The position numbers and the translations under genes are program-made. Under the pieces are notes generated by a model. It was not told where the DNA came from and did no database searches. It saw nothing but the letters and a program-made list of their open reading frames with translations. DNA of 64,000 nt from Parcubacteria group bacterium. GTDB lineage: Bacteria > Patescibacteriota > Patescibacteriia > UBA1558 > GWA2-36-10. Positions 6,320 to 43,337 of the stretch are shown here, piece by piece. Each line of letters begins with the position of its first letter. Position 1 is the first letter of the stretch. Location of the stretch: assembly GCA_003104935.1 (NCBI GenBank), contig PQAE01000010.1, positions 13,768-77,767 on the forward strand. The letters run 5' to 3'.

Positions 6320-9300
6320 TTAGCTGGCCCAACCAATAGTGTAGGCTGTGCCGGTGTTGTTGGTACCAAAGCCATTTACTAGATAGCCGTTGTACCATTG
6401 ACCCCAGGCAGTAGCGTTAGCAGCGTCGGTGGCTAGACCCCTATTCTTATAGTTGTCTGACCAGACAAAGTTACCCGCTTCCATTTGGGCCCAGGCATCA
6501 GCCGGGTTTTGACCGGTTGCCGCTGGTGTTCCAAAGCTGGCCGCTGGAGTGGAAGAAGCAATGTCGCCCACTAGACTGACGGCGATATTGTCTCCGGTTC
6601 CGGCGTTAGCAATAGTACAGTTCAACTTGTAAGTCGCGGAAGCTCCGGCAGAAATCTGCAAAGCTTCTTTGGTATTGCCCCATGAAATATTTGGATTATC
6701 AAAGACGAAAGTCTTATAGGTAAATCCAGTTCCGGCAGTCATGGTTGGATTGGCAGAAGCGCCGACCACATTACCATTACCATCCTTTAACAAACAATTG
6801 GTCACTGTAGTGTCCGTACCGCCACCAGTAGCGATAGCAAAGGTAGCACGATATAACAGCACTTCACCCTGTGAAGGAGCCGCTACGCTAAAGGCAAAGA
6901 TATCCCGAGCACCATTGTTCATAGCAGTGTCCGCGCCCAATGTAGTACCGCTAGTAGACCAGGAAACAGTTGGCACTGACTTGTGCAGGATCATAGCACT
7001 GGTAGTGGAGCCATTGTAGGTTTCAGTAGCAGTGCTGTTGGAATCATTACCAGTAAACTTAAAGCCGTCTGTACCGCCAAAACCAAGTTTGACATCAGCC
7101 GCCGGAGTTCCCGGAGCATTGTCGCTATTTTGATCAATGGTGGCAAAATCAGCTTTGATAGTAATGATCTTAGAACCGTCCTTGGGCACAACCAGAGTAC
7201 CCTTGTTAAAGTTGAAGGTATAGTTTGATGTAGACGGTATGGCGTTAGAAGCCAATAAAGTACTGCCATCATAGAGATATACCTTGAGTATGTCCTGATA
7301 GGTACCCGCCGCTGTTCCGGTCAAAGCACCATCAGCGACATAAACAACCAACTGATCCAAGTTCGCAGCCTCATAAATAGTATCAACTTTGACACTACCC
7401 ATAGTAACGCCAGTGGCGCCGGCTGCTACTAGACCATTAGCCGGGTTGTTGTAGGTGCTGACAGTCACCGTAGCCTTAGATTGCACGGTCAGGACAGCAC
7501 CATTGTCGGCAGTCAGAGACAAAGTAGCTCTGTTGCCGGAGGTGTTGCCGTAGGCCACAACTGAGGGATTGCTGGCGGCTGTAGCATCAGTCAAACCAAA
7601 CTGCACGGTGTTGTTAGCATGAGCACCGGTGGAGACATTACCCTTTAATTGGATAGTCTTACTGGTACCCTTAGTGACGATGATTGGGGCATCAAAAGCA
7701 AAAGTGGAGGTAACACCATCACAGGAAGAACGAGTGGAGCAAGGATCGTCATTAACCGGAGTCAAAGCAGTGCTACCGTCATAGACAGTCAGGTTGGTTA
7801 CTTCAGACGAGGAAGCGGCAAAGAGTAAAGAATTGATTCTGACATCTTCGCCGGAGTTCGTCGCGTCAAAACTCCAAGAACCCAAAAGCACACCTTGCGC
7901 GCCGGGGATGACATTGCCATCAGCTGGCAAGGTCTGTCGGCTAACCGCTAAGTAAGAACCCTTGATGGTCTGAGTGTTGGCAGCTACGCTACTCGATGGG
8001 CTGGCGGTAATACTATTGCCAGTTACCTGACCGGTCGCAGTGAGTACTGTAGCCGGGTTAAACTGCACATAGATAGTATCATTAGTCGCCCAAGCGCCTG
8101 CAGTATCCAAATTACCTACGACATTCAAAACAGTGTCGCCAATTGGCAAGGTAAAGGTATCAGTAAAAGCAACAGTGAAGGCACCAGCAGTAACATCGGT
8201 TGGTCCGGCTACGGTTGCACCAGCACTATTAACAAATTTTACTGACTTTAAGGCGTCCACGATAGTGGTAGCACTGGTGGACACTACTGTTAGAGTTAAA
8301 GCTGTCACGTCAATTGGCTCGCCTTTGACGGTGAATTTGAAGGCTCCCAATGTCTGGCTATTGCCCAAAGTGATGTTGGTAGAACCAACAGTGTTACTTC
8401 TTTCCACAGTCAAAGTACCGTTGGAAATAGTAAATTGGTTGTCGGTTAAGACCGGCTTGGTAGTTGCCGGAGCGCTACCGGTTCCGCTATAAGTCGGAGT
8501 GATATTATAGCCATAGGTCAAACCTTTGACCAAGAGATCAGTATTGCGATAGATCTCTAATTTGATGGTGCGGGCTGAACCGCCGGCCACATCAGCTTTG
8601 ACCGTAAATTGATAGGTCTGGCCCTTAGGAATGGTGAGGTTAATGCCTGAAAAGTCGGCATATCTGCCATTTACCACGCCGTCGGCAATTTTGGTGCCAT
8701 CTCTATACAGACGTATATTGGTGACATCGTCCCCCAGCACAGCGGTACCTTCAGTATAGACTGATACTGTGTTGAACTGCACATCTTCTGTCGATCCAGC
8801 TTGAATCTGGAAAGAGAAGTATACGTAATCCTTCTTACCTACTTCAATAGTAGTAGAAGTAGCATTGGTGTAAGAGCCTCTCTGAACTATGGGTAGACCA
8901 ACAGTAATGGTGGCATTAGTAGTCATGGCATTACCGTAGACCGGTAAAGTGCCAAACACTGAACCACCACCCACTAAGGTGACCGAAGCCAATCCCAAAG
9001 CCGGCACTTCACCAGCGTAGTTGGTCAAATTAGCCGCCATGTTACCAGACAAATAAATAGTCTTGGTAGTATTAGCCGGGATGACCAGATCCTTGGTAAA
9101 GGTGGCCTTGTGCTCCGAGTTAAAAGTCTTGGAGTTGGCATCAAATGGAATCATAGTGGTTCCATCTAAGATGTCCACACTAGCAAAGTCGGCATCTTGG
9201 GCCAAGCCGCCACGCTGGATAACCATCGTATCAATGGTTACGCCCTTGGCGCCGGTGGTCAGATTGACCTTGGTAAAAGGATAGCGAGCTGCATTGTTGA

Positions 9301-31661: not shown

Positions 31662-32045
31662 CTAATCTATTGGCTCCAGATAGTACTTTTCATCCACTGG
31701 CTCGTCCACCAGCTCCTCGGCTGGTTCGGAAAGAATACTAGGCGCCTCGGCACCGGTCACGGGTTCTTTTCTGACCTTATCGACCCGGAATTTGTCCAAA
31801 TCGTAGCCGGTCAAATCCGTGCCTTCGTCTTGAGAAGCCTTCCAAACCGCGATATCACGGTTGATTTTCTCCAACAATTGGTCCTCAGTCATATCTTTGA
31901 TCGGAGAAGACCTATGTAACAGGGCTTCATATTCCTTGACGCTCATGATCATATAGGGGTCATGAAATTCCGAAACTACTATAACCTTGTCCCCGGTACG
32001 ATGAGCTAGGTCTAGGACTTCATCGATTTTTTTGTAGTTTGCCAT
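31662..32045 (-). CDS. Phd/YefM-like antitoxin-fold protein with acidic C-terminal tail
   Basis: 127 aa. VIVVSEFHDPYMIMSVKEYEALL resembles Phd/YefM N-domain (PVIITRRGKPVAVLMSLEEYESL). No cognate toxin ORF adjacent. Confidence 0.35.
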   Translation of the reverse strand: MANYKKIDEVLDLAHRTGDKVIVVSEFHDPYMIMSVKEYEALLHRSSPIKDMTEDQLLEKINRDIAVWKASQDEGTDLTGYDLDKFRVDKVRKEPVTGAEAPSILSEPAEELVDEPVDEKYYLEPID

Positions 32046-32199
32046 ATTTTTTATCTGCCTATCGCTTATGGCTAATGGCTTATATAAATATAAAAATTTA
32101 CTATAAGCAATCGACTACAGGCCATAAGCCAATTAATAATTAGAGGTATTTTAAGCCAAAATATAGGCCTTGTCAATTAAAAACGTGCTGAACAAATAA

Positions 32200-32228
32200 T
32201 TGACAAGAGACTAAATATTTGATAAAAA
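32200..32228 (+). promoter_or_regulatory. promoter TTGACA-N17-TAAAAA with TG-extended -10, embedded in a 10-nt perfect inverted repeat (candidate operator)
   Basis: cttgtcaatt (32169-32178) and aattgacaag (32198-32207) flank/overlap the -35; downstream SD gagaggagg and ATG at 32262. Confidence 0.45.
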
Positions 32229-32261
32229 TAATCGTTTTATGTTCCATCTATGAGAGGAGGT

Positions 32262-32489
32262 ATGGTTGTGGCAAAATACCGCTATAGTGTCGAGGATTTT
32301 CTCGGCAATGTCCGCCACCGCACTCTGGAAGCGGACAGTGATGATGCTGCCCTACAGCAAATGAAACACAGGCAGGAGCAGGAAGTCAGGGGTATTTGGA
32401 GAAAACTGTTGTTCTTGGGATCTCCGAACATCGCTTACGACCTGGTCCGCATTGACCAGGAAGAAATCGTCACTCACCTCGTCCATTAA
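32262..32489 (+). CDS. hypothetical small protein (75 aa)
   Basis: Strong SD GAGAGGAGG 6 nt upstream of ATG at 32262 (ORF-track start 32250 lies inside the SD). Followed by intrinsic terminator. Confidence 0.35.
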   Translation: MVVAKYRYSVEDFLGNVRHRTLEADSDDAALQQMKHRQEQEVRGIWRKLLFLGSPNIAYDLVRIDQEEIVTHLVH

Positions 32490-32514
32490 ATCCCCTTCTC
32501 AGGGGAAAAACAAG

Positions 32515-32552
32515 ATGAGGAGTTCCCTGCGGAACTCCTTTTCTGTTTTTTT
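32515..32552 (+). terminator. intrinsic terminator
   Basis: gaggagttccctgcggaactcctt hairpin followed by ttctgttttttt. Confidence 0.65.
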
Positions 32553-32857
32553 ATTTATACTTACCCAATAAAATAAATAGAATTATCTATTAACATTGAC
32601 AAATATATAAATATATGCTATACTTATATATTCTAATAAAAAGCACCTAAAAAAGCTATAAAACGCAGATATGGAGGGGCAGAAAAGGCCATATTTTCTT
32701 GATTTTATTGGGTCCCTCTCGATTCACTCGAGGCAGGTCGCTCAATGTCTTCATGAAGGTGTGGCTGGACTATGCAACGGCTTTTAGCCGCTTTTAGTCC
32801 TCTCGCCTCCAGATCCGTGCTTTATAGAAAACGTCCTTCAAAACAAGGCAGAGAATC

Positions 32858-33097
32858 ATGATACTATGGATTATGGTTATTGCCCAATTAGTAGTCTGGG
32901 CTTGGTTCTCTTTGCGTGGCGGAAAGCTAAGCGACCGGAAATTTCTTATCTTTACCGCCGGAATGCTCCTGGGACAGCTGGGAGCCGGAATCGAGACTTA
33001 TCAGTCTCACGCCTGGAGAGCTTTTATAGTCCAAATCTACTTCTTTCTCTTCACCGCCATCGGAGGCCTGCAACGTTTCCGACAAATGAAGAATTGA
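32858..33097 (+). CDS. small 2-TM membrane protein (79 aa)
   Basis: Two hydrophobic helices; stop 1 nt before next ORF start (translationally coupled). Confidence 0.3.
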   Translation: MILWIMVIAQLVVWAWFSLRGGKLSDRKFLIFTAGMLLGQLGAGIETYQSHAWRAFIVQIYFFLFTAIGGLQRFRQMKN

Positions 33098-33098
33098 G

Positions 33099-33323
33099 GT
33101 GGCAACCATGACCACGATTATGTCCGAACGGATACTGCACAGCAGAAAGAGATTCCCAATAGTGGATTACTATTTGGGATATGACATCGTGGCCTGGAAG
33201 CAAGGAAGCTTGTACTATGCCAAGCCAGTGGGCTGGAAAGGCCCAATCCTTTCCGCTCCGACCAAACCTCTGCTCCGGAGAAGAATCCACGAGTGGTGGT
33301 TTGAAATCCAGCTACGTAATTAA
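33099..33323 (+). CDS. hypothetical small basic protein (74 aa), GTG start
   Basis: GTG at 33099 (alternative ATG at 33108) preceded by gaggtgg; downstream 10-bp hairpin ccctgaaatc/gatttcaggg. Confidence 0.3.
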   Translation: MATMTTIMSERILHSRKRFPIVDYYLGYDIVAWKQGSLYYAKPVGWKGPILSAPTKPLLRRRIHEWWFEIQLRN

Positions 33324-33439
33324 GTTCCCGCCAACATCTGCCCCCGTCACCCTGAAATCTAAAAGATTTCAGGGCCCGCCCCAGCATATTTTGCAAAAAA
33401 TATATTGAGGCGGGAAAATAAAAAATTCCCAGAATTCTC

Positions 33440-33475
33440 CGCTAATCAAAAATTCCACAGCCTCTGCTGTGGAAT
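33440..33475. terminator. bidirectional intrinsic terminator
   Basis: aaaaattccacagc-ctct-gctgtggaatttttgtt (A-run, hairpin, T-run). Confidence 0.55.
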
Positions 33476-33511
33476 TTTTGTTAAAACTATTGTGGATAAA
33501 CCCTAACTACT

Positions 33512-33540
33512 TGACAAATTAAAAATATGCTATAATATAC
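33512..33540 (+). promoter_or_regulatory. near-consensus promoter TTGACA-N17-TAATAT (alternative TATAAT with 14-nt spacer)
   Basis: TTGACA 33512-33517; TATAAT 33532-33537; TAATAT 33535-33540. Confidence 0.5.
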
Positions 33541-33612
33541 TAGTGATGATGTTTGTGAGGGTTTAGGCCCTCCCACGGTTAAAAGATATTCAAACCGTAG
33601 ACAAATATCATC
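33541..33612 (+). ncRNA. candidate small structured RNA: 72-nt three-way junction (14-bp closing stem, two internal hairpins), family unassigned
   Basis: gtgatgatgtttgt pairs with acaaatatcatcac (14 bp, one G-U). Internal hairpins gaggg-tttagg-ccctc and cggtt-aaaagatattca-aaccg. No ORF. Immediately downstream of the promoter. Confidence 0.35.
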
Positions 33613-33621
33613 ACAAAAAAA

Positions 33622-34107
33622 CTACTGATTTTCCAAGTCACCCTCGTAAAAAACATGTTTCACTCGACCCAATAAAGGGTCATTTTTTGTTTTCCAAAAA
33701 GGTATAACACTCCAGAAATATGGCACTCCGTTATTAACCTCCTTTATAATAACCTTGATTCTGACCTCATTAACAATGGCGACAAATCCATAATACCTAA
33801 CTATCACCATTTTTTTCTCCCATCGAGAATTAGTATTTTGTCTCTCTAAACTATTCTTTTGATTAAATTCCTGAACAGTGTGCGATCTTTCTATAACAGT
33901 TTTGGTTAGCTTCAAAAATTTTAATCTTAAATACTGATCGGAAAGTGACCTGGCCTTATTCCATTCTTTAAACTTAATATGGTCTAACCCCTTAGAATTA
34001 AAATTAACCTTTCTCCCTAGATAAGGGCAATGGACTTCTCTGATAGTGCCATAAAATTTTTCGGCCTCGTCCTTCACTCGATCTAATTTTTCCTGTAGTT
34101 TGTCCAT
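33622..34107 (-). CDS. hypothetical protein (161 aa), AT-rich codon usage
   Basis: Lys/Asn-rich; no recognisable motif; located in the inserted island. Confidence 0.35.
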   Translation of the reverse strand: MDKLQEKLDRVKDEAEKFYGTIREVHCPYLGRKVNFNSKGLDHIKFKEWNKARSLSDQYLRLKFLKLTKTVIERSHTVQEFNQKNSLERQNTNSRWEKKMVIVRYYGFVAIVNEVRIKVIIKEVNNGVPYFWSVIPFWKTKNDPLLGRVKHVFYEGDLENQ

Positions 34108-34157
34108 AAATGGTAGTGCGAGTGAATTTTAAGGTGCTAATGTGTTTTTGTCAATCA

Positions 34158-34190
34158 GTAAAAAAGCCTCACATCAACTGATATGAGGCT
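34158..34190 (-). terminator. intrinsic terminator after fusA
   Basis: Minus strand: agcctcatatcagttgatgtgaggct hairpin followed by ttttttac. Confidence 0.6.
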
Positions 34191-34209
34191 AACAATAAAC
34201 AGAATTAAT

Positions 34210-36306
34210 TTAATTTTTCTTTTTAATTTCTTCAGCGATATTAGTCGGCACCTGGGAATATTTCTGGAATTCCATGCTGTAGCTGGCTCGGCCCTGCGTC
34301 ATAGAGCGCAAGGTCGTGGCATAACCAAACATCTCGCCCAAAGGCACTTCGGCATCGATAACTTTGGCACCGGCCCGATCGGACATATTGTGTACCTGGC
34401 CACGCTTGGAGTTGAGATCGCCGATCACATCACCCATATATTGCTCGGGAGTGACTACCTCTACTTTCATCACCGGCTCCAAGATAATTGGCTTGGCGCG
34501 TTTGAACGCTTCTTTAAAAGCCATAGATCCGGCCACTTTAAAAGCCGCTTCTGAAGAATCCACTTCATGATAGGAACCGTCATAGACCACAGCTTTGACG
34601 TCTACCACCGGATAACCGGCGATGACGCCGTTGTCCATAGCTTCTTTGATACCCTTCTCTATAGCCGGGATATATTCGCGGGGGATCAGACCGCCCTTGA
34701 TCTCATCTTCAAATTCAAAACCCGCTCCCCGCTCCTGCGGTTCCAGACGAATCCAACAATGGCCGTATTGTCCGCGACCGCCGGATTGCTTGATATATTT
34801 TCCTTCGGCTTCGGCCACGGCCAAAATAGTTTCTTTGTAGGCGACTTGCGGAGCGCCGACATTGGCTTCGACTTGAAATTCGCGTTTCATACGATCCACG
34901 ATGATATCCAGGTGTAGTTCACCCATGCCGCCGATAATAGTCTGATTGGTTTCTTCATCGGTGCGTACGGTAAAGGTCGGGTCTTCTTCGGCCAATTTAG
35001 ACAAAGCCATACCCATTTTTTCCTGGTCAGCTTTGGTTTTAGGTTCTACGGCTACGTGAATAACCGGATCCGGGAAATCCATACTCTCTAAGACTACCGG
35101 GCGTTTTTCATCCGCTAAAGTATTGCCGGTAGTTGTATCTTTCAGACCGACCACGGCTACGATGTCGCCGGTAAATATCTCCTGCACTTCCTCCCGGGAA
35201 TTAGCATGCATCCGGAGGATGCGGCCGATGCGCTCTCTTTTTTCGCTATTACAATTTTCCACATAAGAGCCAGAACCCAAAGTGCCGGAATAGACCCGGA
35301 TAAAAGTCAGCCGGCCGACATAGGGGTCTGTAGCCACTTTAAAAGCCAGAGCTACAAAAGGATCTTTATCTTCTGCTTTCAATATTACTTTACTGTCTTC
35401 ATTGCGCGGCTCGTGGCCTTCTACTTCCGGCATGTCCAGCGGTGAAGGCAAATAGGCCGTGACTGCATCCAGCAAAAACTGTACTCCTTTATTTTTGAGT
35501 GCTGAACCGCAAAAAACCGGCACGATTTTTCCGCTGATCACGGCCTGACGCATAACTTGTTTCAAATCCACAATTTCCGGTTCTTGGCCGGCCAGATATT
35601 TTTCCATCAATGTTTCGTCGTGTTCCACGATAGCTTCGATCAGCTTGCCACGATATTCCTCTACTTTATCTTTTAAGTCCGCCGGTATTTCGCGCTTTTC
35701 GTATTTTTTGCCTTCTTCATCCAGATAATACCAGGCTTCTCTTTCCAATAAATTTATAATTCCGGTAAATGTTTCCGCCGCGCCAATAGGCAACTGCATA
35801 GGGTGGGCATTTTTTGTCAGCCGCTCATGAATAGTTCTCAGGTCAAAATAAAAATCTGCACCCATGCGATCCATCTTATTAACAAAGGCTAAGCGCGGTA
35901 CATTGTATTTATCGGCTTGGCGCCAGACAGTCTCGGACTGCGGTTCCACACCGGCTACACCGTCAAAAACCACTACGCCCCCGTCCAGCACACGCAAAGA
36001 GCGTTCTACTTCTACGGTAAAATCAACGTGCCCGGGAGTATCGATAATATTGATATTTGCCGTGCCACCCCCTAACCACTCCGGTATCGGCCAAAAGCAA
36101 GTAGTAGCCGCGGAGGTAATAGTGATACCGCGTTCCTTTTCCTGCTCCATCCAGTCCATCTCGGCCTGACCCTCATGCACTTCGCCGATCTTGTGCTTTT
36201 TCCCGGTATAAAAAAGAATACGCTCGCTGACCGTAGTCTTGCCGGCGTCGATATGGGCGATGATGCCGATATTTCTAGTTTTTTCTAGTGGTGTCTGTCG
36301 GGGCAT
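34210..36306 (-). CDS. fusA: elongation factor G
   Basis: 698 aa; [17 protein letters not shown], typical EF-G domains. Confidence 0.97.
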
Positions 36307-36375
36307 ACGTTAGTTTAAAGTTTAAAATTTCCGCCAGAGGCGGATCGCCCTTTGGGCGAAAAAGTGTAAAGTCTA

Positions 36376-36419
36376 ACCCCCTCTCCCTCCCCCTTGGTAA
36401 GGGGGAGAAGGTGGGGGTC
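36376..36419 (-). promoter_or_regulatory. GC-rich approximately 20-bp imperfect hairpin in the rpsG-fusA intercistronic spacer
   Basis: + strand acccc ctctccctcc cccttggtaa gggggagaag gtggggg; flanked by smaller hairpins cgccctttgggcg and ccgccagaggcgg. Confidence 0.35.
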
Positions 36420-36512
36420 TAAAATATCTAGATTATTTTTAAAAAATATTACTAATTATTTTTTAACATTAAAGTCAATGGCGCCGAGCCGCCAGCTATC
36501 AGCTATTGGCTG

Positions 36513-36977
36513 TTAAGCAAAATGTGCAAAAGCTTTGTTGGCTTCCGCCATCTTGTGCACGTCTTCTCTCTTTTTCATAGCTGTACCTTCACCTTTGGCC
36601 GCGGCCAGCAGCTCTTCGCCTAGTTTGACCCGGAGCGAAGCTCCTTTTCTGGACTTGGCCGCTTCCAAAATCCAACGATGGGCTAAGGCGATTTTTCTGT
36701 CGCCGGTCACTACTATCGGCACTTGATAGTTAGCGCCGCCGATGCGCTTTCCTTTGACTTCCAGATTAGGAGCGACATTGCGGATAGCGGTATCATAGAC
36801 CTCCAGCGGGTCCTGTTTGGATTTTTCCGAGATATATTCAAAAGCGCCGTAAACCAAACCCTGGGCTGTAGTCTTTTTACCGCGCTCCATGATGCGATTG
36901 ATAAACTTGGCGATATCCAGGCGGCTAAACTTGGGGTCCGGAGCAATTTTTCTCTTGGGTATGTTTTTTCCTCTCAT
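36513..36977 (-). CDS. rpsG: 30S ribosomal protein S7
   Basis: Core MRGKNIPKRKIAPDPKF...; start at internal Met (36977) avoids 38-nt overlap with rpsL; ORF-track start is 37019. Confidence 0.9.
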   Translation of the reverse strand: MRGKNIPKRKIAPDPKFSRLDIAKFINRIMERGKKTTAQGLVYGAFEYISEKSKQDPLEVYDTAIRNVAPNLEVKGKRIGGANYQVPIVVTGDRKIALAHRWILEAAKSRKGASLRVKLGEELLAAAKGEGTAMKKREDVHKMAEANKAFAHFA

Positions 36978-36981
36978 ATTT

Positions 36982-37416
36982 TTATGCTTTCTTAGTAGTA
37001 GCCTTTTCTCTCTTTGCACCGTATAAAGACCTACCCTGTTTGCGGGCGCTCACTCCCTGGGTGTCATAAACACCGCGGACGATATGATAACGTACGCCTG
37101 GCAGATCTTTGACCCTGCCGCCACGAATGAGTACGATGCTGTGCTCCTGCAGATTATGCCCCTCGCCCGGGATATATGCCGTGACTTCCATACCGTTGGA
37201 CAGGCGCACACGGGCGATTTTGCGCAAAGCCGAGTTTGGCTTTTTAGGAGTGGTGGTGGTCACTTTGACGCAGACGCCACGTTTAAACGGCGAACCCTTA
37301 GGCAGTTCGTGTTTATATCTTTTCAAACTATTTAAAATAGTTTTCATGGCCGGAGTTTTACCTTTGGCCTTGATACTTTTTCTCGGTCGTTTGAGCAACT
37401 GATTGGTCGTTGGCAT
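36982..37416 (-). CDS. rpsL: 30S ribosomal protein S12
   Basis: 144 aa; [13 protein letters not shown]...KPNSALRK. Confidence 0.95.
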
Positions 37417-37605
37417 AATTTACGGTTTTTTATAAATATTATTTTAAAATAAAAGTGCTTTTCTTAGGGTTAACGGAGCACCGTTAATTAAGAAAAGTCG
37501 CTAGTAAAGTATCACAATTACCCGGACAAGTCAACCCTGCTATAGATTTTTGTCTCTGACTAGGCCAACCACATAAAACCAATCCTGCTTTATGTACCAG
37601 GTCTA

Positions 37606-37642
37606 GTAAAAAAAGACCCCCGCCATAGGCGACTGGCGGGGG
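37606..37642 (-). terminator. intrinsic terminator after the M50 protease gene
   Basis: Minus: cccccgccagtcgcctatggcggggg hairpin followed by tcttttttt. Confidence 0.65.
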
Positions 37643-37781
37643 TGCGTGCGATTTGATGCCTGAAAGGCTGTGAGGTCTCTCTCCCCACCGAGAGAACTCC
37701 GCCCTGCCTTAGGCCACCAAATCCACGAAACGAACTTATATTAAATATTATTATAGTACAAATTTTTATTCTGTCAACAAC

Positions 37782-38414
37782 CTAAGAAAGAAAACGACCG
37801 ACAATATTGATGAAAAAATCGATGATGGATCCAAAAACATCAAAACCGGTCAGGTCACCCAAGATAACCAGACCGATTAATATCCATAGGCCGTTGATAG
37901 TTAGTTTAGTTTTAAAATCATCCCAAGAAGCCGGCAAAAAAGAAAACAATACTTTGGAGCCGTCCAAAGGTGGAATTGGTATCAAATTAAAGACTCCCAA
38001 AACTAAGTTGACTAGGAGTAGTTGCCCTAAAAAGATCGTCAGTAAACTATCCGGCGACAGACCGGGTACAAAAATTTTTATGATCAGCACAAACAAAACC
38101 ACGCTAAGCAGATTAGAAATCGGTCCGGCCAGAGCCACGGCCGCTTCGCCATAACGGCGCCAGCGCATATTATAAGGATTGATCGGCACCGGCCGGCCCC
38201 AGCCAAAACCAGCCAGCAGTAGCATCAGCGTGCCCCATAAATCCAAATGTACCATGGGGTTAAGCGACAGCCGGCCGCTGTATTTAGCAGTATTATCGCC
38301 TAGAGCTGTGGCTGCCAGGGCATGGGAAAATTCGTGGATGGTCAAAGCAAATATGATGGCCAGCACAATGATTAAAAACATCTGGGGGCTGGAAAATAGT
38401 AATCCAAACAGCAT
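37782..38414 (-). CDS. site-2-protease-like zinc metalloprotease (peptidase M50 family)
   Basis: 210 aa, about 6 TM; HExxH TIHEFSHALAA; LIPIPPLDGSK. Confidence 0.65.
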   Translation of the reverse strand: MLFGLLFSSPQMFLIIVLAIIFALTIHEFSHALAATALGDNTAKYSGRLSLNPMVHLDLWGTLMLLLAGFGWGRPVPINPYNMRWRRYGEAAVALAGPISNLLSVVLFVLIIKIFVPGLSPDSLLTIFLGQLLLVNLVLGVFNLIPIPPLDGSKVLFSFLPASWDDFKTKLTINGLWILIGLVILGDLTGFDVFGSIIDFFINIVGRFLS

Positions 38415-38551
38415 AATTTATTTTCTTATTTATAATCTTTAACCGTTGGTCGCACAAGACCGCTATCGGGCTTTACAAAAGAAATGATTTGTGTTAATAT
38501 ATTACAACGTTAATACATTATAACGATAATAAAGCAAAAAAGCAAAATAAT

Positions 38552-38743
38552 ATGGCTAAAATATGTTCTATCTGCCACCGTAAGGCAGTTACCGGTCACA
38601 GCCGCAGTCACTCCAATATCGCTACCAAGCGCCTGATGTCCATCAATATCCAGAGCAAAAAAGTTGACGGCGTTAAAAAGCAGGTCTGTACTTCTTGTAT
38701 CCGCTCGATTAATAAAAAGGTCCGGCAAACTACAAAAGCTTAA
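38552..38743 (+). CDS. rpmB: 50S ribosomal protein L28
   Basis: 63 aa; MAKICSICHRKAVTGHSRSHSNIATKR... matches L28 (CxxC, RSHSNxxTKR). Confidence 0.8.
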   Translation: MAKICSICHRKAVTGHSRSHSNIATKRLMSINIQSKKVDGVKKQVCTSCIRSINKKVRQTTKA

Positions 38744-38864
38744 TTTTAAAATCAGCGCCGTCGCGCTATATACTTTTCATTGTCATTTCGGACTTGATCC
38801 GGAATCTCAGTTACTCTGGTATTGAGATTCCCGCCTGCGCGGGAATGACAAGATAATTGCGAAG

Positions 38865-38886
38865 CGCGGCGGCGCTATTTTTTTAT
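38865..38886 (+). terminator. intrinsic terminator at end of structured rpmB 3' region
   Basis: agcgc-ggcg-gcgct hairpin followed by attttttt; similar hairpin agcgc-cgtc-gcgct at 38752-38765. Confidence 0.5.
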
Positions 38887-38890
38887 TCAA

Positions 38891-38938
38891 AAACAAAAAG
38901 ACGTCTGGCAAGCCCTTCGGCTATTTAGACGCCTTTTT
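38891..38938. terminator. bidirectional intrinsic terminator
   Basis: A-run, gacgtctggcaagcccttcggctatttagacgcc hairpin, T-run. Confidence 0.55.
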
Positions 38939-39129
38939 GACGGTCGTCGTCCAACATATTTAATCGTTAATGATTAAAGAATCGACGAGACTCTGCACCC
39001 TGATTTAAAGCTTATATACCCCTGCAAAGCAGGTGGGTATCCGCAGACCAGCGGCCACAGCCGTGGTAAATATAGGATTCCCAAAATATATGGTTGTAGA
39101 GTCATATATCACTCAAAAGAGCAGGGTAC
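38939..39129 (-). ncRNA. candidate small RNA (about 240 nt incl. terminator), family unassigned
   Basis: Minus-strand promoter TTGCAA-N17-TATACT (39164-39136) upstream, terminator 38938-38891 downstream; no ORF; several internal hairpins. Confidence 0.35.
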
Positions 39130-39135
39130 TTTTAT

Positions 39136-39164
39136 AGTATAGCACTGTCAAAATCCAGTTGCAA
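39136..39164 (-). promoter_or_regulatory. promoter TTGCAA-N17-TATACT
   Basis: Minus -35 at 39164-39159, -10 at 39141-39136. Confidence 0.45.
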
Positions 39165-39407
39165 ATACTCCCAAAGTGCGGCCGGCCAACGCGGCTGGTC
39201 CACAGTCATTGCAAGCATGTGAGGGCGTGACAATCCGACGCGCAGTGTCGCCTCGAGCGAAGTCGAGAGGTTAATCGCTTTTTATTACTAATATATTAAA
39301 CCTTCGCTAAGACTCAGGATGATACTTCTCATCAGATTGCTTCGTCGCCTCTGGCTCCTCGCAATGACTATCAAATAAATCTGGCTAGTCGCTAATTTTT
39401 TTACCAT

Positions 39408-39445
39408 TGCAAAAGCCGCCCTGCACCGTCCGGTGCAGGGCGGCT
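39408..39445 (-). terminator. intrinsic terminator after ndk
   Basis: 14-bp hairpin agccgccctgcacc/ggtgcagggcggct followed by a T-rich tract on minus. Confidence 0.6.
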
Positions 39446-39460
39446 TAAAATGTATAAATC

Positions 39461-40039
39461 CTATTCTACAAATCTCTTATAGTCAAAAATCACTTCCCGG
39501 TCGCCGAACCAGTGCTTGATTTCGTGCTCGGCTTCCTGGGGCGTCTCGGAGGCGTGGACCAGATTCATCACTGCTCTTTTCTCGCTATTGGCCACTGAGG
39601 GAGAATCGGCGCTATAGTCGCCCCGGATCGTGCCCATGTCGGCCATACCCGGGATAGTGGCTCCGCAAATTTTACGCACCATATCTACCGAGTGCACTCC
39701 TTCTACGACCATCCTGACCAAGGGAGCGGAAGTCATATATTCGATCAGCCACTTGCGGACCATCTGACCGATCTTTAAATCATTATCCGTGCCTAATTCT
39801 TTATTCGGATCAATGCCATACTTGGCATAAGTAGCCAGAGTTTTTTGGCCCAGGCGGCTGATCCAGGCCTCATCTTTGGGATAATGATCATGGATCTGCT
39901 CCACAGTCGGCATAAACATCTCTAGAGCCACGACTTTAAGATCGCGCTGTTCAAAGCGGCGGATAATCTCCCCAATCAGACCCTTCTTAACTCCGTCCGG
40001 CTTGATCATCACGTAAGTTTTTTCTTTTTTAAAATCCAT
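39461..40039 (-). CDS. ndk: nucleoside diphosphate kinase (with insertions)
   Basis: 192 aa; YVMIKPDGVKKGLIGEIIRRFEQ, TIRGDY, NLVHASETPQEAEHEIKHWF. Confidence 0.85.
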   Translation of the reverse strand: MDFKKEKTYVMIKPDGVKKGLIGEIIRRFEQRDLKVVALEMFMPTVEQIHDHYPKDEAWISRLGQKTLATYAKYGIDPNKELGTDNDLKIGQMVRKWLIEYMTSAPLVRMVVEGVHSVDMVRKICGATIPGMADMGTIRGDYSADSPSVANSEKRAVMNLVHASETPQEAEHEIKHWFGDREVIFDYKRFVE

Positions 40040-40129
40040 AATTATTCTTTATAAAATGTCCGCCAGAGGCGCCTGCCCGCCAGTGCCTGACATGGCAGGT
40101 GGGGATCCGCACCTCGCTCTGGCTCGGGC

Positions 40130-40161
40130 GGAAAATCACCCCGACGATAAGGTACGGGGTG
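40130..40161 (-). terminator. intrinsic terminator after receiver-domain gene
   Basis: Minus: caccccgtaccttatcgtcggggtg followed by attttcc. Confidence 0.5.
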
Positions 40162-40182
40162 AATCTTGATCAGACTATATAA

Positions 40183-40572
40183 CTATTTAGTTGATTTGTC
40201 CATCTGCTTCTTTACTTCCGCTACCACTTCAGCGGGAGTAATATTGGCTTTGACCAGATAGCCGATCGCACCCATTTTTTTTCCGCGGTCGATATCTTCT
40301 TCCTGTCCCAAGTTGGTTAGTAGTATCACCGGGATCTTAGCCATTTCCGGATCCTCTTTTAAGGTCTTAAGTACGGAAAAACCGTCCATCTTGGGCATGA
40401 TGATATCCAACAATATAAAATCTGGCTTTTCTTCTTTAGCCAGTTTTAGGCCGGCCGCGCCGTCCAAAGCTTTCACTAAATCAAAACCCTCGTTTTTAAA
40501 CTTGACCTCATACATATTGGCCAGCATCTCCTCATCTTCAATCAGCAGAACTTTAAATTTTTTATCCGCCAT
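40183..40572 (-). CDS. stand-alone CheY-like response-regulator receiver domain protein
   Basis: 129 aa; KVLLIEDEEMLANMY, FILLDIIMPKMDG, AIGYLVKA. Confidence 0.85.
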   Translation of the reverse strand: MADKKFKVLLIEDEEMLANMYEVKFKNEGFDLVKALDGAAGLKLAKEEKPDFILLDIIMPKMDGFSVLKTLKEDPEMAKIPVILLTNLGQEEDIDRGKKMGAIGYLVKANITPAEVVAEVKKQMDKSTK

Positions 40573-40603
40573 ATTTATTTATTTTTAATGATTTACTGCT
40601 TAT

Positions 40604-40632
40604 ATTATAGGCCAAACAAAGTCAAAAATCAA
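40604..40632 (-). promoter_or_regulatory. promoter TTGATT-N17-TATAAT for the receiver gene
   Basis: Minus -35 at 40632-40627, -10 at 40609-40604. Confidence 0.5.
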
Positions 40633-40634
40633 GT

Positions 40635-40863
40635 AAAAAGAAACCGGGTCCAGCCTGTGCTGAACCCGGGAGAAAGGTGACTGTCATGTCCAGTATTTGG
40701 GGCACTTTCCGGTTGCCCCCGACCCGCCCAGTTCCCCATGAGGGCTACAGCTTACTCTCCAGACGCGCATTCATACTGAACACTGTTCCTTCCTTTAGTA
40801 CCTCGGTAGGTACCTCGGCAACTGCAGGTCTCTAGCCACCCGACGGGTAGCGAAAAACGCTGC
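40635..40863 (-). ncRNA. candidate small RNA 1 (about 230 nt) with its own consensus promoter and terminator, family unassigned
   Basis: Perfect minus-strand TTGACA-N17-TATAAT (40898-40870). 11-bp hairpin ccgggttcagc/gctggacccgg followed by tttcttttt (40670-40635). No credible ORF. Internal GGGGCA-accggaaag-UGCCCC hairpin; tandem tacctcgg repeat. Confidence 0.45.
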
Positions 40864-40869
40864 GTATTT

Positions 40870-40898
40870 ATTATAATACCTGATATTTTGAGTGTCAA
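40870..40898 (-). promoter_or_regulatory. perfect consensus sigma70 promoter TTGACA-N17-TATAAT
   Basis: Minus -35 at 40898-40893, -10 at 40875-40870. Confidence 0.6.
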
Positions 40899-40943
40899 CA
40901 CGTCTGGAAACCTCGGCTTCTAGCTGGGTCAATAAACAATATT

Positions 40944-41177
40944 TTGCAAAAAAAGGACCCAACCGAAGTTGGGTCCAGCCTTGCACCACTCTGGGGGCAA
41001 GTTCGCGGCGTTGAAAGAGCCAGGTGCTCTGGGCAAGTATTATGCCCGTTTTCTCTTAGGCTACTTGCTGGCACCCTTCGAGAAACGATTCATAGAAAGC
41101 ACGCTCCTAGGACTTACCTCGAGTGCCGGTTCTCCGCATCCGGTTTTACGCTATCCCGAGGATAACTAAAACACGGC
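40944..41177 (-). ncRNA. candidate small RNA 2 (about 230 nt), family unassigned
   Basis: Minus promoter TTGATT-N18-TATAAT (41213-41184); terminator ggacccaacttcggttgggtcc followed by ttttttt (40976-40948). 3' region shares GGCUGGACCC with sRNA 1. No ORF. Confidence 0.4.
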
Positions 41178-41183
41178 AAATAT

Positions 41184-41213
41184 ATTATAAGCCTATTTGC
41201 CATTTGCAATCAA
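41184..41213 (-). promoter_or_regulatory. promoter TTGATT-N18-TATAAT
   Basis: Overlaps the stop codon of the comEC MBL-domain gene. Confidence 0.45.
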
Positions 41214-42034
41214 TAGCTTATGGTCTGACCGTCACTAATTACTCTGATCGTCCCCTGATTTTGCGTATTTACTATTTTGCAACCTGAATTTTCTAAGCGC
41301 TTGACGGCCTCCGGGTGCGGATGGCCAAACTTATTATCTTTGCCCGACGTAATCACACAAAGCTCCGGATTCACAGCCTGCAAAAATGCCTGGCCGGAAG
41401 AATACTTACTGCCGTGGTGACCGACTTTTAAAACTTCCGAACTAACCAGCGAGCCCTGCGCTAAAATATTTTGTTCACCCTCGACCGGCAAATCACCCGT
41501 CATCAAAAAATCAATCTGACCATAGCTTAATCTTAAGACTAATGAATTACCGTTAAAATCCTGTTGCTTATCTTCCGCCGATAAAACCCGGACCGATAAA
41601 TTATCGGCGAAAATAAATTTTTGGTCGGCGCGAACTATAGTGGACTCTAATTTGTGCTGAACTAAAGCTTTTTGCCAGAGTTGATACATAAAATCTTTGT
41701 CCGGCTGATGAGCAGTTACCAAAACATGCTCTACTTTATATTTATTCAGCAACTCTACCAAACCGATTATGTGATCGGCGTGGTAATGAGTGATCACCAG
41801 ATAATCTATTTTCCTTTCCCACCAGGGTAAAAAATCCGCCAGCTGGGATAAAAAACTATTGTCGGGCCCGCCGTCAATCAGGATGTTTTGTCCGCTCGGT
41901 GTGCGGACGATGATCGCATCGCCCTGTCCTACGTCCAGGAAACCTACATGCAATTTTTGCCCGGTCCGGAAAGTCGTAACCAATAAACCCAACAACAGCA
42001 AAATGACAAAAATTAAATACCCATATTTATTCAT
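41210..42034 (-). CDS. comEC: ComEC/Rec2 C-terminal metallo-beta-lactamase domain protein
   Basis: 274 aa; LDVGQGDAIIV, ITHYHADHIIG, KVGHHGSKYSS, FGHPHPEAVKRL. Confidence 0.75.
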   Translation of the reverse strand: MNKYGYLIFVILLLLGLLVTTFRTGQKLHVGFLDVGQGDAIIVRTPSGQNILIDGGPDNSFLSQLADFLPWWERKIDYLVITHYHADHIIGLVELLNKYKVEHVLVTAHQPDKDFMYQLWQKALVQHKLESTIVRADQKFIFADNLSVRVLSAEDKQQDFNGNSLVLRLSYGQIDFLMTGDLPVEGEQNILAQGSLVSSEVLKVGHHGSKYSSGQAFLQAVNPELCVITSGKDNKFGHPHPEAVKRLENSGCKIVNTQNQGTIRVISDGQTISY

Positions 42035-43337
42035 AGTGGTAAGGTTTTAACAGCCAAGTGATGATAAAAAGCAAAGTCAGGGCTAGCCAAAGATAAGAGA
42101 CCGGAAAAACTCCCAAAGTCAGAAAAGCTCCGGGCCAACCGGCCAGATACTCGGCGGTCATAACCATTATTTTTAATAATATAAATAAAGGCCAGGCCAG
42201 GAGCCAGGCTAATAATGGCCAGAAACCAAAGATGCCTAACAGCATGCTGAGAATCAGTGTCAGCGTAGATAGGGGCACGATAATCAGATTAGCCACAGGC
42301 GCTACCAATGAAAAAATGCCAAAATAATAGACAATCAGAGGCGTGGTAAAAATCTGAGCGGCCAAAGTCACTGCACAGACTTCGCGGATACCAAAAATCT
42401 CCGGCATAAAAAATAATAGCTTATTAAAAAATTTGCCGTAGCAAAGAAGTCCTAAAACCGCCAGAAAAGACAATTGCCAGCCGACGTCATAGAGCAAAAC
42501 ATAAGGATTGAGCAGAACGATAATATCGGCCGACCACAGCAGACTAAAAAATGGCGTACTGCGCCGACCCAGAGCCTGGCCGATAAAAACTACAAACAGC
42601 ATGATCACTGAGCGCACCGCCGAACCCGGCAAACCGGTCAGAAATAAATAAAACAAAATAATTAATAAGACCAGCCAAAGAGCATTTTGACGCGACCAGC
42701 CTAAAGCTATCAAAATAGTATTGAGCAACCAGGCGATGACCACCATATGCATGCCGGAGATGGCGATGACATGGCTCAAGCCCACCCGGGCAAATGCTTG
42801 ATTGACTGTGGCCGGCACCTCCCGACTGGTAGCCAAAAGCATGGCCTTACCCAGGGAGGAAGACGGTTCTACTAAATAATCATTGAGGTTTTGCCAAAGA
42901 TATTTTTTGACCCGGTAGAAGTAATAGCGCACGCCTCTTTCCTGCCCGATCACTTTTATTTTCGGCCACTGGCAGACGGCACTGATCTTATCCTTAGCCA
43001 GATATTTATCGTAAAAAAATTCCCGACCGCGGGCATCAACTAATGGTTCCGGCAATTTTAAGCGGCAATTGATCTGTAAAATATCGCCGATATCATATTC
43101 CGGATAAAGAGGTAAGTAGGTAATCAGCCGTCCGCTAAAACCAGGCAGCCGGCGCGGCGCTACCACCATCTGCCAGCCGTCAGTCTTTTTATCAAGTTTA
43201 ACAATACTGGCTTCAAAATCATAGAGCCGGCTGAAATCAAAATCAATATTCTGGTTATGATCCCAAAATATCAGCCAACAAAAATCAGCCAACAAAAAAA
43301 GGAGGCTTACACTCAAAAACCATCTGCTTTTAGGCAT
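42027..43337 (-). CDS. comEC: ComEC/Rec2 N-terminal membrane 'competence' domain protein
   Basis: 436 aa; VGLSHVIAISGMHMVVIAW; multiple TM; 8-nt overlap (ATGAATAA) with MBL-domain ORF. Confidence 0.7.
   Translation of the reverse strand: MPKSRWFLSVSLLFLLADFCWLIFWDHNQNIDFDFSRLYDFEASIVKLDKKTDGWQMVVAPRRLPGFSGRLITYLPLYPEYDIGDILQINCRLKLPEPLVDARGREFFYDKYLAKDKISAVCQWPKIKVIGQERGVRYYFYRVKKYLWQNLNDYLVEPSSSLGKAMLLATSREVPATVNQAFARVGLSHVIAISGMHMVVIAWLLNTILIALGWSRQNALWLVLLIILFYLFLTGLPGSAVRSVIMLFVVFIGQALGRRSTPFFSLLWSADIIVLLNPYVLLYDVGWQLSFLAVLGLLCYGKFFNKLLFFMPEIFGIREVCAVTLAAQIFTTPLIVYYFGIFSLVAPVANLIIVPLSTLTLILSMLLGIFGFWPLLAWLLAWPLFILLKIMVMTAEYLAGWPGAFLTLGVFPVSYLWLALTLLFIITWLLKPYHYE

Follow-up and report, generated by a model that had tools for sequence, protein, structure and literature searches.

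Dual-function small RNAs such as SgrS/SgrT, SR1/SR1P and RNAIII/hld are transcripts of ~200–300 nt with their own promoter and an intrinsic terminator, and in SgrS the open reading frame (ORF) is truncated or absent in some species, with the RNA elements still conserved. To our knowledge, almost no regulatory RNAs or micropeptides have been described for bacteria of the Candidate Phyla Radiation (CPR), and a literature search found nothing on units of the type examined here in Patescibacteria, the TIGR-Tas papers that surfaced being unrelated. The present analysis concerns a 64-kb window (the whole stretch of DNA that was analysed) from a Parcubacteria (CPR) metagenome-assembled genome, in which the 637-bp gap between a gene for a ComEC-type metallo-β-lactamase (MBL)-fold protein and a gene for a stand-alone receiver (REC) protein contains two promoter-to-terminator units, named here unit A (upstream) and unit B (downstream). 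The evidence presented below gives about even chances to a reading of units A and B as diverged tandem paralogues of a clade-specific, autonomous small-ORF RNA gene, either of the micropeptide or of the dual-function type.

Like SgrS/SgrT, SR1/SR1P and RNAIII/hld, the units combine an independent transcript, a small ORF led by a Shine–Dalgarno (SD) sequence and structured non-coding parts, and the loss or truncation of the SgrS ORF resembles the variation of the frame in the unit family, which spans 7 to 36 codons. However, the most conserved element of the units is the translation start and not a separate seed, neither sequence nor Rfam comparison links the units to the dual-function RNAs, and the unit family is lineage-specific, being confined to one Parcubacteria clade. 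Small-ORF genes with stabilising 5′ stem-loops share with the units a strong promoter, a 5′ hairpin, an SD with AUG, a very short frame and a terminator, and the long forms of the family found at loci L081 and L175 carry a coding signature, whereas the copies in the window encode only 9–10 unconserved residues and the third-position GC of ~0.9 in the long forms is foreign to the host. Leader-peptide attenuators (trp, his, erm and cat) also place a short, unconserved ORF ahead of a terminator hairpin and a gene, but here REC has its own conserved promoter and exists without units in relatives, no antiterminator was found in the units, and the units are complete and apparently tandem-duplicated. 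Type I toxin mRNAs (hok, tisB and aapA1) are likewise structured small-ORF mRNAs in which long-range 5′–3′ pairing can occlude the SD, but the unit peptides are hydrophilic or basic, of 7–36 residues, and are not hydrophobic membrane peptides. A type I toxin–antitoxin system was rejected on the hydrophilic nature of the peptides and because no antisense promoter is found inside the units. The units are an undescribed, lineage-specific family of a familiar kind, namely a small-ORF or dual-function RNA gene.

Promoters and terminators of units A and B

The region 39000–43000 was scanned for promoter-like sites, and 18 were found compared with 6.8 ± 2.7 in shuffled sequences. All three minus-strand promoters that the initial annotation had assigned to unit A, unit B and REC were recovered, and these are three of the four top-scoring sites. 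The unit A promoter, TTGATT-N18-TATAAT (CTATTGATTGCA; coordinates 41184–41213, minus strand; 10 of 12 matches), has a −35 hexamer that overlaps the TGA stop codon of the MBL gene, and the unit promoter in L081 and in L175 likewise sits directly behind the MBL stop. The unit B promoter (40870–40898, minus strand) is a perfect TTGACA-N17-TATAAT (12 of 12 matches), and the 16-mer gttgacactcaaaata is common to this promoter and that of the L168 unit. The promoter of REC itself, TTGATT-N17-TATAAT (40604–40632, minus strand), lies outside the units and is kept in loci with and without units. The sole plus-strand promoter-like site in the stretch (41197–41224; 9 of 12 matches) lies over the unit A promoter and points into the MBL gene.

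Terminators of the hairpin-plus-U-run type were placed by the scan where they had been claimed, and those of units A and B are its two best terminator-like sites. The unit A terminator (40948–40976, minus strand) consists of GGACCCAAC-UUCG-GUUGGGUCC followed by U7, with a 9-bp hairpin at 40976–40955, and the unit B terminator (40635–40669, minus strand) consists of CCGGGUUCAGC-ACAG-GCUGGACCCGG followed by UUUCUUUUU, with an 11-bp hairpin at 40669–40644. As no terminator was found between the MBL stop codon and unit A, the unit A terminator presumably also stops read-through from comEC/MBL. The unit B terminator abuts the REC promoter, its U-run adjoining the −35 hexamer, and the terminators of the L081 and L175 units are placed in the same way. 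In the unit B orthologues the terminator ends CCCGGG..CCCGG(A/U)UUC are retained and the mid-stem changes are compensating.

The predicted transcripts are of ~230 nt for unit A (40948–41177, minus strand) and ~229 nt for unit B (40635–40863, minus strand), and both are more stable than dinucleotide shuffles when folded (z=−3.15 for unit A and z=−3.43 for unit B). The GC content of the two units is 0.53 and 0.56, compared with 0.456 for the window.

Homologous units in related genomes

In the window, the gene order on the minus strand is prfB, a gene for a 489-aa (amino acid) protein, comEC (42027–43337), the MBL-fold gene, the 637-bp gap, REC and NDK (39461–40039). The MBL-fold gene (41210–42034, minus strand; 274 aa; Pfam Lactamase_B) and REC (40183–40572, minus strand; 129 aa; Pfam Response_reg, E=2.4e-22) are the two flanks of the insertion site. 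The MBL protein matches an NCBI entry for a Parcubacteria group bacterium with 100% identity. MBL–REC–NDK synteny was found to be widespread in Parcubacteria, with an MBL–REC gap that ranges from 63 bp to 1.7 kb. The gap is 63–108 bp and carries no unit in L082, L083, L085, L086, L088, L089 and L165; it is 357–1002 bp in several loci including the window, and 1.3–1.7 kb in L001 and L092, where L001 came from a profile search of genome contigs with an MBL alignment (among the matches listed, mostly distant phyla). The gap is a hot spot for accessory inserts.

In the closest clade, in which REC is 83–88% identical to that of the window, the gap is filled by one homologous unit. A search for homologues beside REC/comEC found this unit at the same site in four other Parcubacteria genomes (L081; L167 and L175; L168, L169 and L172; and L177), so that the family set consists of six members from five organisms. 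BLASTN of the units against all loci compared gave nothing useful as the divergence was too high, and the homologues were recognised only via synteny. In each relative's unit, a TTGACR-N17-TATAMT promoter, read from the sequences, is followed by a hairpin that begins within a few nt of the predicted transcription start. A purine-rich SD and GUGUUCAGUAUGAA then open a short frame, behind which come a tail of 53–84 nt and the CCCGGG...CCCGG(A/U)UUC terminator. The recurrence of promoter, 5′ hairpin and terminator in four other genomes upholds the earlier proposal of independent promoter-to-terminator units as opposed to a single riboswitch leader, and a putative promoter and terminator of its own, as would be expected of an independent small RNA gene, is kept in the L081, L175, L168 and L177 units.

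An nhmmer family profile, made from the four non-window units only, matched unit B over its full length (40899–40634; E=5e-13) and nothing else in the 64 kb. Unit B is the orthologue of the units in L081, L175/L167, L168/L169/L172 and L177. Global alignment of unit A, the diverged paralogue, with unit B and with the L168 unit gave z values of 4.2 and 5.2, respectively, and none of 300 dinucleotide shuffles reached either score. The stretch of unit A that ends in AGGCUGGACCC aligns with the terminator hairpin of unit B, the new hairpin of unit A lying just downstream. This alignment, together with a unit A promoter located at the MBL stop and a unit B terminator located at the REC promoter, points to an old tandem duplication, and it is probable that duplication followed by divergence produced units A and B.

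The initial annotation had also described a motif shared by the terminator regions of the two units. The 11-mer AGGCUGGACCC is indeed present at 40981–40971 and at 40656–40646, but its interpretation as a common terminator element was not supported, as the shared GGCUGGACCC forms the 5′ arm of the unit A terminator but the 3′ arm of the unit B terminator. The shared GGCUGGACCC is better read as a relic of the putative tandem duplication. A diversity-generating retroelement template was ruled out, as the units have no second copy in the window by BLASTN or nhmmer.

The translation-start module and mini-ORFs

The units had been described as ORF-free and the gap as having no believable ORF. There is no long ORF in either unit, yet each has an SD, an AUG-AAU start and a mini-ORF ending in UAG, and the mini-ORFs of the window are positionally homologous to 33–36-codon ORFs in relatives, where the coding signature is strong. 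In unit A (41061–41108, minus strand), the SD AGGAG (41108–41104) is followed by GUGCUUUCUAUGAA, and the frame AUG AAU...UAG (41093–41061) has 10 codons encoding MNRFSKGASK; past the UAG, the frame resumes as PKRKRA*. The unit B mini-ORF, AUG AAU GCG ... UAG (40745–40774, minus strand), has 9 codons encoding MNARLESKL. A direct repeat, CCGAGGUAC (40818–40798), and a GGGGCA..UGCCCC hairpin (40719–40699) exist as reported earlier, but both are in the downstream unit B and not in the upstream unit to which they had been assigned.

The most conserved element of the family is the translation-start module SD-GUGUUCAGU-AUG-AA, which is invariant in five genomes. Its core is the 14-mer GUGUUCAGUAUGAA (40770–40783, minus strand, in unit B), which is made up of the SD tail (GUG), a 6-nt spacer, AUG and AA, and contains the palindrome GUUCA-GUA-UGAAY. 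A 14–19-mer, aGUGUUCAGUAUGAAug, is identical in the five genomes (17–19 nt in some pairs), and the MBL proteins of the genomes that share the 14-mer are only 51–67% identical to that of the window. No further copy of the 14-mer without mismatch was found in the 1.08 Mb of DNA compared. A viral-contig scan for the 17-mer gave a single match, inside a phage coding sequence, that is attributable to chance. A LexA-type operator was considered and rejected, as the palindrome GTTC-N5-GAAC differs from the Gram-positive LexA box (GAAC-N4-GTTC), and its distance to both promoters varies whereas its spacing to the AUG is fixed.

The frames in the relatives have 7 codons in L177 (MNVLRDT), 13 in L168 (MNVTTTNARKSTA), 33 in L175 and 36 in L081 (MNAQKWFGRTQTQKRDKNTTSRRKKKANEVPIHRRQ), the last having been skipped by the gene caller. 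GC at codon positions 1, 2 and 3 is 0.47, 0.44 and 0.86 in the L081 frame and 0.48, 0.45 and 0.91 in the L175 frame, whereas third-position GC in host genes is 0.47–0.59, and the two long frames consequently look translated. These frames have clear coding periodicity and a codon usage that appears foreign to the host. The 9–10-codon frames of the window are too small a sample for codon-position bias.

All six family frames end in UAG, which is the rarest stop codon in the long ORFs of the window (2 of 33). As REC and NDK also end in UAG, it is a real stop codon here. Recoding or read-through of UAG was rejected on the same grounds, and because REC orthologues of other genomes are of 126–130 aa and read-through of the unit ORFs would enter the terminators. 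The distance from stop codon to terminator changes little, at 53–84 nt, although the frames span 7–36 codons, indicating that differences in unit length reflect frame length. No third-position GC periodicity was detected downstream of the stop codons in the short forms, indicating that they are not freshly frameshifted long ORFs. The six family peptides have only MN in common and there is no conserved amino acid sequence. A likeness to ribosomal protein Thx was unsupported by Pfam and NCBIfam searches with the six small peptides, and antisense coding was rejected as the stop-free antisense stretches have no conserved sequence.

The free variation of frame length and peptide sequence would be expected if the units were purely non-coding, trans-acting small RNAs in which the mini-ORFs are incidental and the 14-mer is a pairing seed or protein-binding site. 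Invariance of the 14-mer at the nucleotide level is typical of small RNA seeds, the units are GC-rich and fold better than shuffles, and their layout, with a closed central domain between the 5′ hairpin and the terminator, is like that of a small RNA. However, the invariant element is exactly the SD tail, 6-nt spacer, AUG and AA, always behind a purine-rich SD, and the L081 and L175 frames, with third-position GC of ~0.9 and ends at the same relative place, would be unexpected in a non-coding RNA. Complements of the 14-mer are also no more frequent than expected in the window (5 with 3 or fewer mismatches versus 4.2 expected). A purely non-coding RNA is thus considered rather unlikely.

In sample SRR33452769, an assembly break (the end of L167 and the start of L174) falls inside the 33-codon ORF, and L175 from a sister sample spans it. 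This break could reflect strain-level variation in the ORF.

RNA structure

A stem-loop was predicted at the 5′ end of both transcripts, at 41140–41176 in unit A (minus strand; 16 pairs; z=−2.7), where it is collinear with that of unit B, and at 40824–40863 in unit B (minus strand; z=−4.2). All six members of the family have a 5′-terminal hairpin, as do three distant cassettes (z values of −1.2 to −4.2). In units A and B, the base helix of this hairpin is followed by a 1-nt bulge, a middle helix of 6 bp and an upper helix of 7 bp that is capped by a triloop. Automatic alignment of the six sequences gave 3 of 19 pairs that covary, all in the terminator stem or in a low-confidence internal helix. 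As MAFFT failed to hold the 5′ hairpins in structural register, the pairs were read directly. Read in this way, the substitutions between the unit A and unit B hairpins break none of the pairs: three are compensatory double changes and four are single changes that wobble pairing can accommodate. The hairpins of L081/L175, L168 and L177 retain the base helix (A)CCG/CGG(U) and differ in the upper stems.

The lowest-energy folds pair a G-rich strand, located at or beside the SD, with a C-rich strand that directly precedes the terminator. Tested against shuffles that preserve composition, the pairing reaches significance in unit B (z=−3.8) and in the L168 unit (z=−2.6). Structure beyond the 5′ hairpin and the terminator is unproven from six sequences.

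The initial annotation had raised read-through regulation of REC as a possibility. A cis-acting leader or attenuator, in which translation of the mini-ORF modulates terminator read-through into REC and NDK, would account for the placement of a short ORF and then a terminator just ahead of a gene, with the terminator U-run abutting the REC −35 hexamer. Against this, the REC promoter (cTTGATTttt ... TATAAT/TATACT) is kept in all of the loci described above, with or without inserts, and its retention in genomes that have no unit indicates that REC is independent of the units and that they are not its leader. In addition, both terminators are strong, inspection of the six sequences and of the lowest-energy folds revealed no conserved pairing that competes with the terminator, and the helix that closes the RNA abuts the terminator stem without overlapping it. 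The peptides share no regulatory amino acid bias, and two complete tandem units would be unexpected in a leader. This explanation is therefore regarded as very unlikely.

Comparison with known RNA families

The initial annotation could not place either RNA in a known family, and cmscan searches against Rfam gave the same result, with nothing significant in the window or in five related loci. At gathering thresholds there was no match in the whole window. At E≤10, a scan of 40400–41400 listed only BjrC68, SorY and ncr1241, whose alignments cover hardly more than the terminator hairpins, and at E≤1 nothing beyond terminator-driven noise was found over 32000–41300. No match was obtained in the five orthologous loci at E≤0.05. 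The faint resemblance to an S-box that had been suggested was not borne out, as no SAM family was listed in 40400–41400 even at E≤10. The raiA motif RNA was not matched in the Rfam scans of the window or the five orthologous loci, and the earlier view that 6S, signal recognition particle (SRP) RNA, RNase P and tmRNA do not fit agrees with the lack of Rfam matches to these RNAs and of an ARAGORN tmRNA. Assignment to the S-box, 6S, SRP, RNase P, tmRNA or raiA is therefore not supported.

Proposed function of the units

As the promoter, 5′ hairpin, SD and AUG, stop position and terminator are kept and the peptide is free to change or shrink, it is likely that the units are expressed and that ribosome loading matters. 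Each unit would use its own sigma-70-type promoter and its own intrinsic terminator to produce an RNA of ~230 nt, and the stable 5′-terminal stem-loop may shield this RNA from 5′-end-dependent decay. The SD and AUG-AAU module would then be presented and ribosomes would load at the AUG to translate a very short frame, of 10 codons in unit A and 9 in unit B, closed by UAG. In the structured tail of ~75–85 nt, the C-rich pre-terminator stretch may pair back onto the G-rich SD region and so occlude the SD. The output would be a fast-evolving micropeptide or, in the short-frame versions of the window, mainly the RNA itself, and the transcript would be of the dual-function type, with its state controlled by the translation start and the 5′–3′ pairing. 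We infer transcription, translation, the role of the hairpin as a stabiliser and any cellular role of the units from the features described.

Several observations weigh against a small-ORF or dual-function RNA gene. Peptides of 9–10 residues that have no sequence conservation are weak candidates for functional products. Pfam and NCBIfam have no family for the six small peptides, and the L087 peptide (41 aa), the only one long enough to be searched against a set of 5.8 billion proteins, matched itself alone. The spacing from SD to AUG is long (unit A, 10 nt; unit B, ~12 nt), and the start site of unit B is base-paired in the lowest-energy fold. The pairing between the SD and the pre-terminator stretch is no better than in shuffles in four of the six units. 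Unit A was missed by the nhmmer profile of the four non-window units and has four changes in the 14-mer that is invariant elsewhere, suggesting that unit A may be under relaxed constraint.

A related possibility is that the units are ribosome-engaging regulatory RNAs, in which selection acts on the initiation module and the 5′–3′ closing helix and the peptide is irrelevant. In such an RNA, ribosome loading would toggle the molecule between closed and open states, reporting or tuning translational capacity or another trans target. This variant is judged unlikely; were it true, the units would be among the first riboregulators described for CPR/Patescibacteria.

The drift of unit A from the family consensus, start module included, would also be explained if the units were decaying remnants of genes for small basic proteins, with truncated and non-functional copies in the window. 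The ancestor would have encoded a Lys/Arg-rich peptide of 33–46 residues, as in L081, L175, L087, L090, L092 and L001. In the more distant L090, L087, L092 and L001, basic ORFs of 33–46 codons are present in the same gap with the same build, and they loosely share KW.G and KKKA(N/D)E motifs. The continuation of the unit A frame past UAG as PKRKRA resembles the result of a nonsense mutation, so that unit A fits decay best, and the gap is a hot spot of presence and absence. However, none of the six family members, four of which are short-framed, lacks a near-consensus promoter, the 5′ hairpin, the start module or a strong terminator, whereas random decay would not spare exactly these elements. 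The lack of third-position GC periodicity behind the stops argues against recently frameshifted long ORFs, and several relatives have a clean gap of 63–108 bp. CPR genomes are compact and non-functional DNA is usually lost from them, which also counts against persistent remnants. This explanation is considered improbable.

Under the preferred interpretation of a small-ORF RNA gene, units of CPR genomes that have a promoter and terminator and are apparently ORF-free can be small-ORF genes in which the start module is conserved and the product is not, and the comEC/MBL–REC gap may be a hot spot for accessory mini-genes that are highly expressed and whose codon usage looks foreign. Functional units would provide an entry point to lineage-specific regulation, or to interaction with a host, in this uncultured clade, and units without a function would be a clean example of small-gene shrinkage.

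Other inserts and candidate RNAs

Gap inserts comprising one to three self-contained cassettes, each with a promoter, 5′ hairpin, SD, ORF and terminator, were observed in L001 (4731–6080), L087 (3219–4235), L092 (3300–5000), L179 (2365–3010) and L090 (3270–3640). Read from the sequences, the cassettes encode basic peptides of 33–46 residues and also Ala/Thr-rich proteins with an N-terminal signal-peptide-like segment. The GC content of the gap in L001, L087 and L092 is 0.46–0.56 compared with 0.34–0.44 for the locus, and a near-identical 5′ hairpin, UGAGCGRUGCU-UACG-AGYRUUGCUCA, is found in L001 and L087 ahead of unrelated ORFs.

In the window as a whole, 60 of 67 crudely called ORFs are on the minus strand, and no tRNA gene or tmRNA was found in the 64 kb using ARAGORN. 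A further ORF-free unit of ~245 nt is located downstream of NDK (39137–38893, minus strand), with its own promoter (39165–39136) and a long terminator. Using nhmmer, this RNA was found in 17 loci, including L081 (7172–7420), L168 (4175–4420) and L177 (4196–4441), and also L176, L174, L179, L082, L001 and L088. RNAalifold analysis of 10 sequences identified compensatory double changes in 21 of 45 predicted pairs, covariation that is much stronger than in the family of units A and B, and the single-stranded stretches GACUCUACAA, GGGAAUCCUAUAUU and GCGGAUACCCACC are highly conserved. Rfam gave no match, and the unit appears to be a genuine structured RNA of this Parcubacteria clade that has not been described before. 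As a candidate for a conserved CPR RNA with real structure, it is better than units A and B.

In the region 37608–37777 (minus strand), upstream of the rpsL promoter, a perfect TTGACA-N17-TATAAT (37777–37749) precedes a GC-rich, ORF-free RNA of ~130 nt with a strong terminator at ~37640–37608. This RNA matched L081 (8507–8674; nhmmer E=1.4e-5), the match spanning 168 nt for a query of 126 nt, and its only Rfam match was a weak, terminator-driven one to Spot 42. The GC-rich region 33100–33400 (minus strand; ggggcgggccctgaaatc...) has no convincing ORF and is flanked by a hypothetical gene and, on the plus strand, a gene for a small membrane protein. It resembles a structured RNA; Rfam gave no match, and nhmmer found no counterpart in the loci compared. 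The plus-strand gene at 32866–33111, encoding a hydrophobic protein of 81 aa, has an untranslated region of ~240 nt (32600–32866) behind the promoter-like ttgacaaatatataaatatatgctatact. This region has no Rfam match and is a possible cis-regulatory leader.

Finally, hairpin-forming repeats, gtcattgcgag...cgacgaagcaatc, are present in the spacer downstream of NDK, at ~39200–39368 in the window and at 6340–6440 in L081, and these look like miniature repeat elements.

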